Source: a virus (Duplodnaviria > Heunggongvirae > Uroviricota > Caudoviricetes). From it: 7,280 nt of DNA. A model generated the notes under the pieces. It saw only the letters and a list, made by a program, of their open reading frames with translations. It searched no databases and was not told the origin of the DNA. The stretch lies in the IMG/VR virus record IMGVR_UViG_2537561605_000013; one strand, written 5' to 3'. The position numbers and the translations under genes are program-made. This document shows, piece by piece, positions 1-5,614 of the stretch. Numbering within the stretch: the first letter of the stretch is position 1; each line of letters begins with the position of its first letter.

Positions 1-151
1 GAAAAACCGTGCAGAAGTGGAACTGGCCACACTAACGTGGGTGGACTGGTATAACAATCGACGATTGCTGGGAAGGCTGGGCCATACTCCTCCGGCAGAA
101 GCAGAAAAAGCTTATTATGCTTCCATCGGAAACGATGATCTGGCAGCCTGA
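1..151 (+). CDS. IS3-family transposase (OrfB, integrase-like DDE), C-terminal fragment; 5' end lies outside the window
   Basis: Frame 2 reads ...KNRAEVELATLTWVDWYNNRRLLGRLGHTPPAEAEKAYYASIGNDDLAA to a TGA stop at 149-151. The WVDWYNNRRL...PPAEAE tail is typical of IS3-family OrfB C-termini. Recognised by eye, not searched. Confidence 0.7.
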   Translation, partial: KNRAEVELATLTWVDWYNNRRLLGRLGHTPPAEAEKAYYASIGNDDLAA

Positions 152-193
152 GTTCACAGATAAAACACTCTCCAGGAAACCCGGGGCGGTTCA
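1..193. mobile_element. Right end of an IS3-family insertion sequence; exact terminus uncertain (about 160-205)
   Basis: The transposase stop is at 151, and IS3-family right inverted repeats normally end within tens of bp of that stop in ...CA. A candidate ...GGTTCA ends at 193. The left IR is not in the window, so the boundary cannot be confirmed. Confidence 0.45.
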
Positions 194-205
194 GTTAGTT
201 TCTCC

Positions 206-294
206 ACAAAACAGAGAAGAACACCTGCGGTGGCAGCCGCCCGGATGGATTGGGTTATGAGCCCGTCGTCCGATGATGTTCTTCTCTGTTTTGT
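206..294. repeat. Perfect 18-bp inverted repeat (ACAAAACAGAGAAGAACA at 206-223; TGTTCTTCTCTGTTTTGT at 277-294) around a 53-bp GC-rich spacer
   Basis: Read directly: the two arms are exact reverse complements. The spacer contains a smaller GCGG/CCGC palindrome. Confidence 0.75.
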
Positions 295-340
295 AAAAAG
301 AGCGGTACCAGCCGGAAGCAAGTGTACAAACTGGTACCGC
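292..340 (-). terminator. Candidate intrinsic terminator for leftward transcription
   Basis: A 10-bp stem (GCGGTACCAG at 302-311, CTGGTACCGC at 331-340) is followed on the minus strand by TCTTTTTAC. The loop is unusually large (19 nt), so confidence is low. Confidence 0.3.
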
Positions 341-764
341 CAAAGCAGTGGCTGTTGTGGTGACCGGTGCTGATCTCCGGCTTGCGGTTATTTCAGACTC
401 TCACGGGCATTTAATTGCCCCGCCGAACAGCTCTTTTCCGCAATATCTGCAATGTCTTTCGCGCATCAGCCTGCGCATTCACCACAACGCTGAGAGCACT
501 TAGCCAGTTACGGCACCACACTTTGTCGCGGTTCCATAAATGCCCTCATCGTTGCACCCTGGTCTCTTCCCAGGCGTCAAACCGAATCGCCACGCTGGTT
601 AGGCGTCTTATCAGCATCATCATTGACTTGCACATTCCGGCTACCTGGTTTGTTTGCCCGAGCAAGGAGTGGATTGTCCCCTTTAACGTCCCCAGACCGC
701 TAACGACGCATGTGCCATACGCCGTGTTACAACCAAATTTTGTTAGTACCTTGTTTGTTTGTCT

Positions 765-830
765 GGAAAGAAAGATAAAATGAAGTTGCGCATTATGCAA
801 GTGTTTTTGTTGCGAGATATGCAATTTGAT
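765..830 (-). promoter_or_regulatory. Putative OL/pL: two operator copies plus a leftward sigma70-like promoter
   Basis: TTGCGCATTATGCAA (786-800) and TTGCGAGATATGCAA (810-824) match the TTGC-N7-GCAA pattern of the cI-cro intergenic operators. On the minus strand a -35 TTGCAT (complement of 795-800) and a -10 TATCTT (complement of 772-777) are separated by 17 bp. Confidence 0.5.
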
Positions 831-832
831 GG

Positions 833-859
833 GTAATGAAAAGCCACCTTCGGGTGGCT
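833..859 (-). terminator. Intrinsic terminator downstream of the repressor gene
   Basis: A 7-bp stem (AGCCACC / GGTGGCT) with a TTCG loop at 842-859 is followed on the minus strand by TTTTCATT, about 20 nt past the cI stop at 880-882. Confidence 0.55.
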
Positions 860-879: not shown

Positions 880-1572
880 TTAATTGTGTCGCTTAAGGGT
901 TTGTGACTGGCTGATTAAGACCTTTCCAAAGACCATAAACCGGTGTTCATTTTCGCTGGTAATTCCCCATTCACGGTAAATCTGGTTATCAGAAATCACC
1001 AGTAGTTTGTCAGGTATCATTTGCAGTCGTTTGACATATATTTTGTCATCAAAACCAAAGACATATATACCATCTCCATCAAACTGATTGATACTGACAT
1101 CAACGAAGATGAGATCTCCTGGCTCAATGGTTGGACACATACTGTCCCCACGAACGTTGATAACTTTAATGTGATTGGCTGGTCGTCCGCCGAACATTGA
1201 TACAGCATTATCAGTTCTGTATTCAATGGCATGAATCACATCAATGACATCACCGCCCTGGATAAGGCCATTTCCCGCACTGGCACTGACATCCAGCATT
1301 TCAATACGGAATACATCCTTCACCTGCGCAACATCCTCACTAATACTGTTTTTACATACAGTATTACTTTTGAAGTCTGAGGTAAAGAGATCAGCAATAT
1401 CAACACCTAAGCTCCTGGCAATATTACTCAGGGCTTGTTCAGTGAATTGTTTCTGCTTACCTGTTTCCAGGCGTGAGATATTCGCCGCATCCACTCCTAT
1501 TGCTTCAGCGAGATCGGCTATTTTCATGTTCTTCGCTTGGCGAAGTTGTCTGACTCGGTTTCCTATGTTCAT
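880..1572 (-). CDS. cI: cI-type prophage repressor with N-terminal HTH (XRE-like) and C-terminal S24 LexA-like autopeptidase domain
   Basis: 230-aa ORF. The N-terminus has IADLAEAIGVDAANISRLETGKQ (HTH). The C-terminus has GDSM (catalytic Ser) and IYVKRL (catalytic Lys region). It is divergent from a Cro-like gene across an operator-rich intergenic region. Confidence 0.9.
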   Translation of the reverse strand: MNIGNRVRQLRQAKNMKIADLAEAIGVDAANISRLETGKQKQFTEQALSNIARSLGVDIADLFTSDFKSNTVCKNSISEDVAQVKDVFRIEMLDVSASAGNGLIQGGDVIDVIHAIEYRTDNAVSMFGGRPANHIKVINVRGDSMCPTIEPGDLIFVDVSINQFDGDGIYVFGFDDKIYVKRLQMIPDKLLVISDNQIYREWGITSENEHRFMVFGKVLISQSQTLKRHN

Positions 1573-2809: not shown

Positions 2810-2829
2810 AGGTCGGTCATGAGCACTAA
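2650..2829 (+). CDS. Hypothetical small protein (59 aa, TTG start), or the C-terminal part of a frameshifted upstream gene
   Basis: AAGGAG at 2636-2641 sits 8 nt before the TTG at 2650. The product ...[58 protein letters not shown] is protein-like. Its stop (2827-2829) overlaps the next gene's ATG at 2819. Confidence 0.4.
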
Positions 2830-3760
2830 ATTAACCGGCTATGTATGGGATGGTTGCGCTGCGTCAGGCATGAAGTTATCCAGCGTGGCAATTATGGCCC
2901 GCCTGGCTGATTTCAGTAATGACGAAGGTGTGTGCTGGCCATCAATTGAAACCATTGCCCGCCAGATTGGCGCGGGGATGAGCACCGTCAGAACGGCTAT
3001 CGCACGGCTGGAAGCAGAAGGCTGGTTAACGCGTAAGGCGCGTCGCCAGGGTAACCGCAATGCGTCGAATGTTTATCAGCTTAACGTTGCGAAGCTTCAG
3101 GCAGCGGCATTTTCTCAACTGTCAGATTCTGACCCGTCAAAATCTGACGCATCAAAATCTGACCCGTCAAAATTTGATGCGTCGAAATCTGGCAAAAAAG
3201 CGGGTTTTCACCCGTCAGAATCTGGCGGGGATCCGTCAGTAAAATCAAAACATGATCCGTCAGATAAAAAACCTTCTCGTCCGGACGCTTCGCAACCGGA
3301 CACGCAGACGGATGAACAGGATTTTTTAACTCGCCATCCTGATGCGGTTGTATTCAGCCCTAAAAAGCGCCAGTGGGGGACGCAGGATGATTTGACCTGT
3401 GCACAGTGGCTCTGGAAAAAAATCATCGCCCTGTACGAGCATGCCGCCGAATGTGACGGCGAGGTGGTTCGTCCCAAAGAACCGAACTGGACAGCCTGGG
3501 CAAACGAAATTCGCCTGATGTGTGTGCAGGATGGTCGTACTCATAAACAAATCTGCGAGATGTACAGCCGCGTCAGTCGCGATCCGTTCTGGTGCCGTAA
3601 CGTGCTCAGCCCGTCGAAGCTGCGGGAAAAATGGGATGAGCTTTCCCTGCGCTTATCGCCGTCCGTCAGCACGTACACCGAAAAACGCGAGGACCCGTAC
3701 TTCAAAGCCAGTTACGACAACGTGGACTACAGCCAGATCCCGGCAGGATTCAGGGGGTGA
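2819..3760 (+). CDS. Phage replication initiator, lambda-O-like, with N-terminal winged-helix DNA-binding domain and an iteron-encoding linker
   Basis: 313-aa ORF. The N-terminus (VAIMARLADFSNDEGVCWPSIETIARQIGAGMSTVRTAIARLEAEGWL) looks like a replication-initiator HTH. A low-complexity linker (SDSDPSKSDASKSDPSKFDASKS...) is encoded by tandem DNA repeats, as in lambda O. Confidence 0.8.
   Translation: MSTKLTGYVWDGCAASGMKLSSVAIMARLADFSNDEGVCWPSIETIARQIGAGMSTVRTAIARLEAEGWLTRKARRQGNRNASNVYQLNVAKLQAAAFSQLSDSDPSKSDASKSDPSKFDASKSGKKAGFHPSESGGDPSVKSKHDPSDKKPSRPDASQPDTQTDEQDFLTRHPDAVVFSPKKRQWGTQDDLTCAQWLWKKIIALYEHAAECDGEVVRPKEPNWTAWANEIRLMCVQDGRTHKQICEMYSRVSRDPFWCRNVLSPSKLREKWDELSLRLSPSVSTYTEKREDPYFKASYDNVDYSQIPAGFRG
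3115..3275. repeat. Iteron array (putative ori) inside the initiator gene
   Basis: Five tandem ~15-bp units begin at about 3119, 3134, 3149, 3164 and 3180 (core (C)CGTCA(A/G)AATCTGAC). Further CCGTCAG motifs at 3211, 3233 and 3257 are interspersed with A-rich tracts. Confidence 0.7.
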
Positions 3761-4904: not shown

Positions 4905-5227
4905 CGACGTTAACTCAATGCCAGCAGCAGGTGCTGGATATGCTGATTTCTTATCAGAAAGAACGTGGCTTCCCGCCAACCAATCAGGAGGTGGCAACCA
5001 TGCTGGGATACCGTTCAGTGAATGCAGAGGTGGAGCATCTTCGCGCACTGGAGAAAAAAGGCGTCATCACGATAAAGCGTGGCGTGGCCCGGGGGATAAC
5101 GCTTCATACCGCGGTGAAGGACGACGACAGCGAGGCGGTCGGGATTATCCGCGCACTGCTTGCCGGTGAGGAAAACGCAAGGCTGCGTGCAACCCACTGG
5201 TTACATGAGAGGGACCTGAAAGTATGA
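4901..5227 (+). CDS. LexA N-terminal DNA-binding-domain protein (no S24 peptidase domain)
   Basis: 108-aa ORF whose ATG overlaps the Dam stop (ATGA). Residues ~7-70 (QQQVLDMLISYQKERGFPPTNQEVATMLGYRSVNAEVEHLRALEKKGVITIKRGVARGITL) align closely with the LexA winged-helix domain. The remaining ~35 aa are unrelated to the LexA protease domain. Confidence 0.75.
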   Translation: MTTLTQCQQQVLDMLISYQKERGFPPTNQEVATMLGYRSVNAEVEHLRALEKKGVITIKRGVARGITLHTAVKDDDSEAVGIIRALLAGEENARLRATHWLHERDLKV

Positions 5228-5614
5228 AGCTGATCCTGCCTTTTCCGCCCAGCGTGAACACGTACTGGCGACACCCCAACAAAGGGGCGTTTGCTGGTAA
5301 GAGCCTGATAAGCGCGGCGGGGCGAAAATTCCAGAGCGCGGCGTGCGCAGCAATAGTTGAGCAGTTACGTCGTCTGCCGAAACCAACGTCGGCACCTGCT
5401 TCAGTGGAGATCGTGTTGTTTCCTCCGGATAACCGGATCCGCGATCTGGACAACTATAACAAAGGCGCTGTTTGACGCCCTGACCCACGCGGGTGTGTGG
5501 GAAGACGACAGTCAGGTGAAAAGAATGCTGGTGGAGTGGGGACCGGTTATCCCGGAAGGGAAGGTCGAGATCACTATCAGTAAGTACGAGAAAACGGCGG
5601 GTGCAGCCGCCTGA
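5224..5614 (+). pseudogene. rusA: RusA-family Holliday-junction resolvase, frameshifted
   Basis: Frame 1 (5224-5475) gives MKLILPFPPSVNTYWRH...PPDNRIRDLDNYNKGAV*. Frame 2 continues ALFDALTHAGVWEDDSQVKRMLVEWGPVIPEGKVEITISKYE to a stop at 5612-5614. The two parts together span a RusA-like protein. An apparent 1-nt insertion lies near 5464-5466 (AACAAAGGCGCTG). Confidence 0.7.

Follow-up and report, generated by a model that had tools for sequence, protein, structure and literature searches.

In phage HK022 and in lambda, as predicted for the locus described here, an RNA element (put or nut, respectively) lies just downstream of the leftward promoter pL and ahead of terminators, and lambdoid phages carry tRNA genes in a second slot, between Q and the lysis genes. 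Phage annotation is almost wholly protein-based, and gaps beside the immunity switch are usually either ignored or filled with spurious open reading frames (ORFs), as in mEp460, cdtI, SfII, Eeyore and, probably, at upl of P1. Here we analyse such a gap in a 7,280-nt stretch of Caudoviricetes DNA (IMG/VR virus record IMGVR_UViG_2537561605_000013; hereafter the window, numbered from its first letter). Judged from its sequence, the window comes from a lambdoid prophage of the SfV/mEp460/cdtI type, one of those with yfdP-yfdQ-yfdR (CPS-53-like), and represents its immunity region; we conclude that positions 194-780 are probably the intact, conserved, non-coding leader of its early-left operon. The leader contains two conserved minus-strand elements, which we call modules X and Y. 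Module Y is a tRNA-like structured phage RNA, with a real chance of being a new functional class.

Module Y (350-495, minus strand) is supported by a family alignment, by covariation, by its match to the family model R1, by its minimum free energy (MFE) fold and by evidence as to strand. Read 5' to 3', an acceptor-like stem of 7 bp (486-480 with 362-356, extendable to 488/354) is followed by an invariant AAU junction (479-477), a D-like hairpin GCGCA-GGCUGA-UGCGC (476-461), a variable central arm (460-382) and a T-like hairpin GCCGG-AGAUCAGCA-CCGGU (381-363) that is stacked directly on the 3' strand of the acceptor. A small hairpin that the original prediction had placed at 406-421 is present as 405-422, within the central arm. 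Across the family the T-like hairpin reads GCCGG-AGAUCAGCA-CCGGC, the variable region ranges from 26 to 162 nt and the whole module from ~95 to 230 nt; the 7-bp acceptor stem and the 5-bp T-like stem are adjacent in the alignment without an intervening base, as in the coaxial stack of a tRNA, and they covary. Aligned copies show two conserved blocks that pair with each other around the variable middle, and the apical loops, GCUGA and UCAGC, hardly vary and complement each other perfectly. In a plain MAFFT alignment of 74 viral sequences, 95% of cells at the proposed pairs are paired and double changes occur in 12 pairs; none of 500 shuffles was as good, and slid controls fell to 27-52%. Among 103 model matches (102 distinct rows counted) from species-representative bacterial genomes, 98.9% of cells are paired, with double changes in 14 of 17 pairs and all four Watson-Crick pair types at five positions of the outer stem, although this second alignment leans towards the structure because it was fitted to the model.

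The MFE fold of the window copy is a four-arm cloverleaf. This copy scores 91.3 bits with model R1, though it is part of the seed alignment, and its core is identical to that of members from other phages; independent copies score 73 and 37 bits (P1) and 30 bits (SfII), the E-values of R1 being rough (short-calibrated). cdtI and PhiR47_1 have a second subtype, in which the acceptor stem and the AAU junction are retained and the loops, though different, are again complementary (AUGG/CCAU), while a third variant, in SfII and P1, is still recognised by R1 (30-37 bits). Several observations agree on the strand. Stem cells read on the window's minus strand include 32 G-U pairs versus 9 A-C (p = 4e-4); 39 of 40 tRNA genes within 1 kb of a module Y copy are on the strand of Y; and a transcript from the inferred pL would run in this same direction. 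The minus strand of 296-765 also folds better than the plus strand (-163 versus -144 kcal/mol; z = -2.0 versus -1.2). Of the possibilities raised in the original prediction, a structured non-coding RNA is the one supported: two conserved modules, a terminator and a leader hairpin all lie on the minus strand and have compensatory changes in relatives, and the minus-strand folding that it proposed as a check favours the same strand and returns module Y as a cloverleaf. Two ribozyme candidates were considered and rejected. A hammerhead core (from CUGAUG...GAAA in the D-like arm) has no room for stem II, and its GAAA is not conserved; for an HDV-like fold downstream of tRNAs, the P1 and P1.1 partners were lacking on inspection.

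The interval that carries these modules is intact. The left edge of the window is the right end of an insertion sequence (IS), IS1203 (IS629-like, IS3 family; 1-193, plus strand), with a 100% match to loci annotated 'IS3-like element IS1203 family transposase'. The IS had been thought to end at 151/152; only the stop codon (149-151) of the transposase C-terminus (17-151, plus strand) stands there, and IS1203 sequence continues to 193, where its terminal sequence ends ...GGTTCA. The annotation of identical copies and the terminal CA agree with the IS3 family (IS1203/IS629), which has a DDE transposase C-terminus and a terminal inverted repeat ending in CA. In sequence comparison, homology to IS-free phages begins at 191-194. 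From there, positions 194-900 are 99.9-100% identical to IS-free E. coli prophages and 88-98.6% identical to phages PhiR63_1, mEp460 and PhiR47_1, and all IS-free relatives compared have the same ~720-bp spacer between yfdP and the cI-like repressor gene. Alignment with intact related prophages shows that yfdP-yfdQ-yfdR stand to the left of this spacer. O157:H7 strains that have this very IS/phage junction lack yfdQ and yfdP, and the far end of their IS adjoins yfdR; we therefore conclude that the IS deleted sequence to the left and left the spacer untouched, so that rearrangement by the IS, as had been suggested, does not apply to 194-780. Nor is a decayed gene supported, since the interval is near-identical in the intact, inducible phages mEp460, PhiR63_1 and cdtI, and PGAP calls no gene in the spacer of the IS-free copy in E. 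coli O157:H7 AC-3. The whole 1-900 stretch was not found in any complete E. coli genome of the collection compared. Besides the window-type region in IS-free form, strain AC-3 has, at its thrW/proA site (6438-9692 of the locus extracted), a prophage with the identical IS1203/phage junction; the Y variant of that prophage is of the SfII type, and its spacer and cI are separated by another IS3-family element.

The orientation of the immunity region is set by the cI-like repressor gene (helix-turn-helix plus S24 peptidase; 880-1572, minus strand), to the right of which are cro, ymfL and replication genes. On its left we place a putative pL and its operators (OL) at 772-824 on the minus strand, with a -35 element TTGCAT (800-795) and a -10 element TATCTT (777-772). 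The operator pattern TTGC-N7-GCAA occurs at 786-800 and 810-824, with matching sites across cI at 1593-1607 and 1641-1655, and the layout TTGCAT-17 nt-TATCTT (800-772) is common to SfII. A lambdoid pL was expected to drive an N gene; that premise fails for this kind of phage, IS-free SfV/mEp460-type relatives having yfdP-yfdQ-yfdR in that place. We found no N-like ORF in 194-780, and none is annotated left of the repressor in the IS-free relatives.

Downstream of the putative promoter, module X (about 546-745, minus strand) is a multi-hairpin RNA that includes hairpin 573-557 (CCUGG-GAAGAGA-CCAGG) and an invariant stretch, CCAGGUAGCCGGAAUGUGC. Positions 561-738 have a 79% identical counterpart in P1, which follows tRNA-Ile directly on its 3' side and precedes ban, and 482-725 are 83% identical to phiV10; a 19-mer of module X occurs in at least 120 viral contigs, with seven variants. 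These variants exchange CCUGG/CCAGG for CCUCG/CGAGG or GCCGG/CCGGC around a constant GAAGAG loop and, in compensatory fashion, GGAU/AUCC for ACGC/GCGU, with indels in loops. Since this diversity is confined to enterobacterial phages, the evidence for X is weaker than that for Y. Between X and Y is a candidate micro-ORF of nine codons, MEPRQSVVP (AUG...UAA; 507-536, minus strand), with an SD-like GAGGG at 546-542; its 15 sequence variants differ recurrently at third codon positions (GAA/GAG, CCG/CCA/CCU), a coding signal that is suggestive in a small data set.

Beyond Y, a leftward intrinsic terminator (295-340, minus strand) consists of a GC-rich stem of 10 perfect base pairs (340-331 with 311-302), a 19-nt loop and the tract UCUUUUU (301-295), in agreement with the candidate terminator noticed earlier at 292-340; a simple terminator scan missed it because the loop limit of that scan was 8 nt. 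The architecture is kept with unrelated stems in Salmonella phage 118970_sal3 (GUCGGCGUC.../...GACGCCGAC-CUUUUU) and phage Eeyore (GUGCCCA.../...UGGGCAC-CUUUUUU). Next is a long hairpin in the yfdP 5' leader (206-294, minus strand), with arms 294-270 and 230-206 and a conserved apical part, 269-231; the perfect 18-bp inverted repeat reported in this place (206-223/277-294) is indeed there and extends to 25 nt at 88% (206-230/270-294). The hairpin is nearly invariant across six phages, its stem is kept by compensatory changes in 118970_sal3 and Eeyore, and a 22-nt indel (an insertion in Eeyore) rules it out as coding sequence. In intact phages it is followed by a small hairpin and a Shine-Dalgarno sequence, which the IS has removed here. 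Coding sequences are annotated over the conserved terminator and leader hairpin in 118970_sal3 (497-1030 of our extracted locus), Eeyore (801-1070) and SfII (SfII_35; 1444-1782), and the true start of these yfdP-like genes appears, from the sequences, to be the downstream MNDDRMTVV or MSNDRMTVV. A separate terminator, for the repressor gene, was found by the terminator scan at 842-859 (minus strand), and the equivalent SfII site is annotated as such.

Pieces of the spacer recur in unrelated phages, always within unannotated gaps. A P1-like phage has a 94.6% identical copy of 353-501 next to its tRNA-Thr and tRNA-Asn, and a stretch of ~42 bases (~457-502) recurs with about 90-93% identity in Klebsiella, T1-like, Ackermannviridae, Erwinia and Edwardsiella phages. 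An exact 21-mer of module Y is present in at least 120 viral contigs and in at least 120 bacterial species, from alpha-, beta- and gamma-proteobacteria and a few metagenome bins labelled as other phyla. Prophages of Escherichia, Pseudomonas, Janthinobacterium, Rhizobium and many other genera share this 21-base core without a single difference, which argues for a target common to all these hosts. The window-type module Y is found in 852 of 5,426 complete E. coli genomes (about one in six), and plasmids account for 237 of the places; judging by their listed sizes (roughly 90-120 kb), these may be P1-like prophages. Among the E. coli matches listed, no annotation lies under module Y. Rfam 15 had nothing over X or Y in the window and six related loci (E-value mode) or in 17 genome loci (gathering thresholds), and matched only neighbours (tRNAs, Proteo-phage-1, isrJ and weak tmRNA fragments). 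The covariance-model search proposed with the original prediction thus comes back empty for the window because the module Y family is absent from Rfam. We found no description of module Y in the literature when searching by topic and by literal motif sequences. It could be among the unnamed candidates in a catalogue of 8,495 candidate RNAs from IMG/VR (PMC10690425); mEp460 is not covered by the mEpimmI paper (PMC11893012).

The genomic contexts of module Y are varied. A cI-like repressor gene is upstream on the same strand at 22 of 111 loci. At other loci Y lies between the gene for a 257-aa cysteine-rich protein, which we take to be a Q-type antiterminator, and the lysis genes; in lytic phages it stands behind its own sigma-70 promoter; and in P1-like and other phages it is inside tRNA arrays. 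P1 has two copies (2490-2624 and 2773-2885 of our P1 locus, minus strand; 37 and 73 bits), upstream of tciA and on the strand of the tRNA and ban, in the order Y, Y, tciABC, tRNA-Ile, module X, ban. Two genes annotated on the plus strand overlap these copies, upl and, with its start, plp; upl may therefore be spurious. Elsewhere, isrJ (L254 3517-3593) is about 90 nt and Proteo-phage-1 (L046 3205-3282) about 110 nt upstream of Y on the same strand, which suggests mixed arrays of RNA genes; at two further loci, Proteo-phage-1 (L250 2325-2405; L308 723-799) is about 1.6-1.8 kb from Y, on the other side.

A real tRNA is also found in the position of Y, and a tRNA-like core within it. At one locus a tRNA-like D/T core fills the variable region of module Y, and in phiV10, where the upstream sequence is as in the window, a tRNA-Arg(UCU) starts where the outer stem of Y starts. 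Between the same flanking 9-mers (GTTGTGGTG...CACCACAAC, also GUUGUGGUG...CACCACAAC), related phages carry different inserts: the window-type Y, the AUGG/CCAU type in cdtI (L246 1664-1778) and PhiR47_1 (L245 764-878), the third type in SfII (L007 1665-1799) and tRNA-Arg in phiV10 (L006 1428-1504). By sequence, this looks like cassette-like exchange at a fixed slot, a real tRNA included.

Some module Y copies also have tmRNA-like neighbours. In lytic Klebsiella and E. coli phages, including 6991, T1-like swi2 and Taipeivirus UPM2146, we noted a tmRNA-like tag frame, GCA AAC GAA GAA ATG TAT CTG GCA GTA GCC TAA, encoding ANEEMYLAVA* (also ANDNTFLAVA* and ANDEQFLAVA*). It is on the minus strand at ~1150-1260 of locus L008, ~1150-1250 of L009 and ~1140-1240 of L010, and is also present in L056, L062 and L111. 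Of 242 contexts, 6 (none of them in the window) have the tag frame on the strand of Y, 200-360 nt upstream of it. In three sequenced phages that we inspected, it follows a near-consensus sigma-70 promoter (TTGACA-17-TAGATT), and between tag frame and Y are a covarying 7-bp acceptor-like stem (GAGCACU/AGUGCUC) and a T-arm-like GGTTCGA. Rfam tmRNA models give weak local matches in these phages, and the element may be a divergent or partial phage tmRNA.

How might such a leader work? We propose that, once the repressor leaves OL, leftward transcription would begin at about 765 and yield a ~470-nt RNA without a protein product, consisting of X, a spacer with the possible 9-codon ORF, Y and the terminator. 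Most pL transcripts would end at 295, and read-through would enter the long regulatory hairpin before yfdP, just past which IS1203 has cut the operon. Module Y, by this scheme, would be released by tRNA-processing enzymes (RNase P and 3' trimming), since it offers the 12-bp acceptor/T-type stack that they recognise, and would then act in trans, early in infection, on a host factor conserved across Proteobacteria. That Y is excised and then serves as a trans-acting tRNA mimic or decoy towards a host factor is a tentative proposal. We likewise consider it possible, short of probable, that Y is an undescribed and widespread class of phage RNA with a Watson-Crick loop-loop elbow, acting as a tRNA mimic (for example, to decoy host immunity that targets tRNAs or to draw off tRNA-processing enzymes as a substrate) or as a self-assembling RNA; jointly with this class reading, and just as tentatively, Y would be a cassette of tRNA arrays and early leaders in temperate and lytic phages of alpha-, beta- and gamma-proteobacteria.

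A number of observations weigh against a tRNA-like RNA made from pL. ARAGORN detects no tRNA in the window, and the tRNA model RF00005 has no match there at E <= 10. The loops read GGCUGA and AGAUCAGCA rather than D-loop GG and T-loop TTCRA; the central region of 26-162 nt does not correspond to an anticodon arm of 5 bp with a 7-nt loop, and a CCA behind the stem was seen in just 5 of 74 members. Y would therefore not deceive a protein that recognises tRNAs by their loop sequences. A tRNA gene is within 300 nt of only about 16% of module Y copies, and there was no conserved partner protein among the loci examined, only positional regularities. Members of the family were gathered with an exact 21-mer in the D-like arm, so this arm and its loop are invariant by selection; the loops can pair, but this rests on their complementarity in two subtypes and not on covariation within the family. 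Diversity of module X is low (seven variants). A terminator-like site is found within 90 nt downstream of 22% of module Y copies versus 9-11% of controls, a modest enrichment. Finally, a consensus sigma-70 promoter scan found nothing at pL, and both the existence of pL and a transcription start near 765 are inferred from the sequence.

An alternative, which we regard as rather unlikely, is that X, Y or both act in cis on RNA polymerase, by analogy with the put RNAs of HK022, and overcome the terminator at 340-295 so that yfdP and the remaining early-left genes are expressed in a phage that has no N. The order of pL, RNA modules, conserved terminator and early genes would suit this, as would the lack of an annotated N to the left in IS-free relatives. 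Moreover, Y recurs just downstream of repressor-controlled promoters and between the cysteine-rich protein (whose Q-like reading is unverified) and lysis genes, module X lies between tRNA-Ile and ban in P1, and a universal target such as RNA polymerase would be in keeping with conservation so extreme among Proteobacteria. Nonetheless, put RNAs consist of two adjacent stem-loops and the putL region of HK022 has no likeness to X or Y in sequence or architecture, Y is also found in tRNA arrays and, behind its own promoter, in lytic phages, a real tRNA can take its slot, and only 22% of copies have a terminator close behind them. The lambda type of antitermination fares no better: 194-780 has no N-like ORF, and there is only a partial boxA-like UGCUCU (494-489). 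A boxA reading of AGUGCUCUUUCCG upstream of Y was rejected: it holds in one lineage only, where the stretch pairs with an upstream GAGCACU.

Less probable again, and in our judgement unlikely, is that the loops of module Y pair between molecules to form multimers, by analogy with ROOL, GOLLD and manA RNAs. The perfect complementarity and near-invariance of the apical loops speak for it, and other phage-associated RNAs near tRNA genes do build kissing-loop cages (PMC12286853; bioRxiv 10.64898/2026.07.01.735769). However, our data fit intramolecular and intermolecular pairing alike, Y is small, and the Rfam ROOL and GOLLD models do not match.

The repeats might instead act as DNA, either as a site of recombination or cassette exchange or through single-strand structure. 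The different inserts between constant 9-mers (Y, the cdtI type, the SfII type and tRNA-Arg) do look like exchange with fixed borders, but the bias towards G-U over A-C on one strand and the strict co-orientation with tRNA genes weigh against it, and the stems covary freely, so no fixed protein-binding repeat is kept; we consider action at the DNA level very improbable.

We give hardly any credence to a small protein encoded by the interval. Two ORFs are present, one of 122 aa (415-783, plus strand; annotated in mEp460) and one of 92 aa (546-824, minus strand), and ORFs are annotated here in PhiR63_1 as well as in mEp460; two shorter ORFs, 230-373 (plus) and 154-321 (minus), match PHROGs of unknown function. 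Yet neither long ORF has a Pfam or PHROGs match, and their frames are not kept, because differences in loop length among module X variants are not multiples of three; cdtI and PhiR47_1 have other sequence in place of that around the ORF start, and substitutions in the stems are compensatory. The PHROG matches of the shorter ORFs overlie conserved non-coding hairpins and are probably repeated automatic ORF calls. PGAP, silent on the IS-free AC-3 copy, makes two calls in the AC-3 IS-junction copy: a frameshifted pseudogene, corresponding to 154-482, and a hypothetical protein of 81 aa, corresponding to 595-840, a part in which that locus and the window differ. The original prediction was therefore right to see no convincing gene here, 194-780 being without a credible one, and to treat the two long ORFs as noise. 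As for a decayed gene or a sequence scrambled by the IS, the adjoining IS and the operon truncated on its left are what such a reading has to offer, and we dismiss it almost entirely, given that 194-900 is identical or nearly so in IS-free prophages and functional phages, that sub-blocks are conserved in unrelated phages and that we found no intact relative with a gene in this position.

A module Y that mimics tRNA and is made early in infection would bear directly on how phages respond to tRNA-cutting or tRNA-depleting defences; action on RNA polymerase would account for the passage of early terminators by lambdoid phages without N. Either way, this is a defined element in genetically tractable phages (P1, mEp460), and its recognition corrects the annotation of hundreds of genomes. 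Two features elsewhere in the window are worth recording. The rusA-like Holliday-junction resolvase gene (5224-5614, plus strand) appears frameshifted, with overlapping ORFs 5224-5475 and 5357-5614 in place of the single 390-nt gene of relatives (14489-14878 of the AC-3 locus). Inside the replication-protein gene (2819-3760), tandem repeats of ~18 nt (TCTGACCCGTCAAAA / TCTGACGCATCAAAA ...; ~3121-3190, plus strand) encode DPSKSDASKS repeats and are probably origin iterons within an O-like gene, by analogy with lambda.

Each of the described systems shares some features with this leader. The locus is unlike lambda nut in that it has no boxB-like hairpin and no N protein, and UGCUCU upstream of Y is boxA-like only in some lineages. 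The hairpin at 294-206 resembles the RNase III-sensitive hairpin of the lambda N leader in being long and near-perfect (18-25 bp) and in standing ahead of the first early-left gene, although the sequences are unrelated and here the hairpin comes after the terminator. Unlike tmRNA, module Y has no G3-U70 pair; the likeness is in the tag frames near some Y copies elsewhere, the window itself having neither an Rfam tmRNA match nor a tag-like frame upstream of Y, and ARAGORN finds no tmRNA in the window and no tRNA or tmRNA in SfV-type relatives. GOLLD and ROOL are like Y in their phage or prophage location, often beside tRNAs, and in their ornate structure and kissing loops, but they are much larger, their hosts are mostly Firmicutes and metagenomes, and neither has an Rfam covariance match in the window or the six related loci. 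The species 1 and 2 RNAs of T4 (rnaC and rnaD) are, like Y, small structured RNAs in a phage tRNA cluster, on the tRNA strand; they have no sequence similarity to module Y, and rnaC, unlike Y, keeps a canonical T arm (GGGTTCGAATCCC). Phage tRNAs themselves (tRNA-Arg of phiV10; the P1 and T4 arrays) share with Y a 7-bp acceptor stem, a short junction, a D-like arm and a 5-bp T-like stem that directly adjoins the 3' strand of the acceptor, on the same strand and in the same genomic slots. Y differs from them in having no GG/TPsiC loop consensus, in the replacement of the anticodon arm by the variable region, and in an elbow that would consist of five Watson-Crick pairs between the loops. Its predicted geometry is nonetheless that of the upper half of a tRNA: stems of 7 and 5 bp run on without a break, the D-like arm follows a junction of 3 nt, and the two loops can meet.

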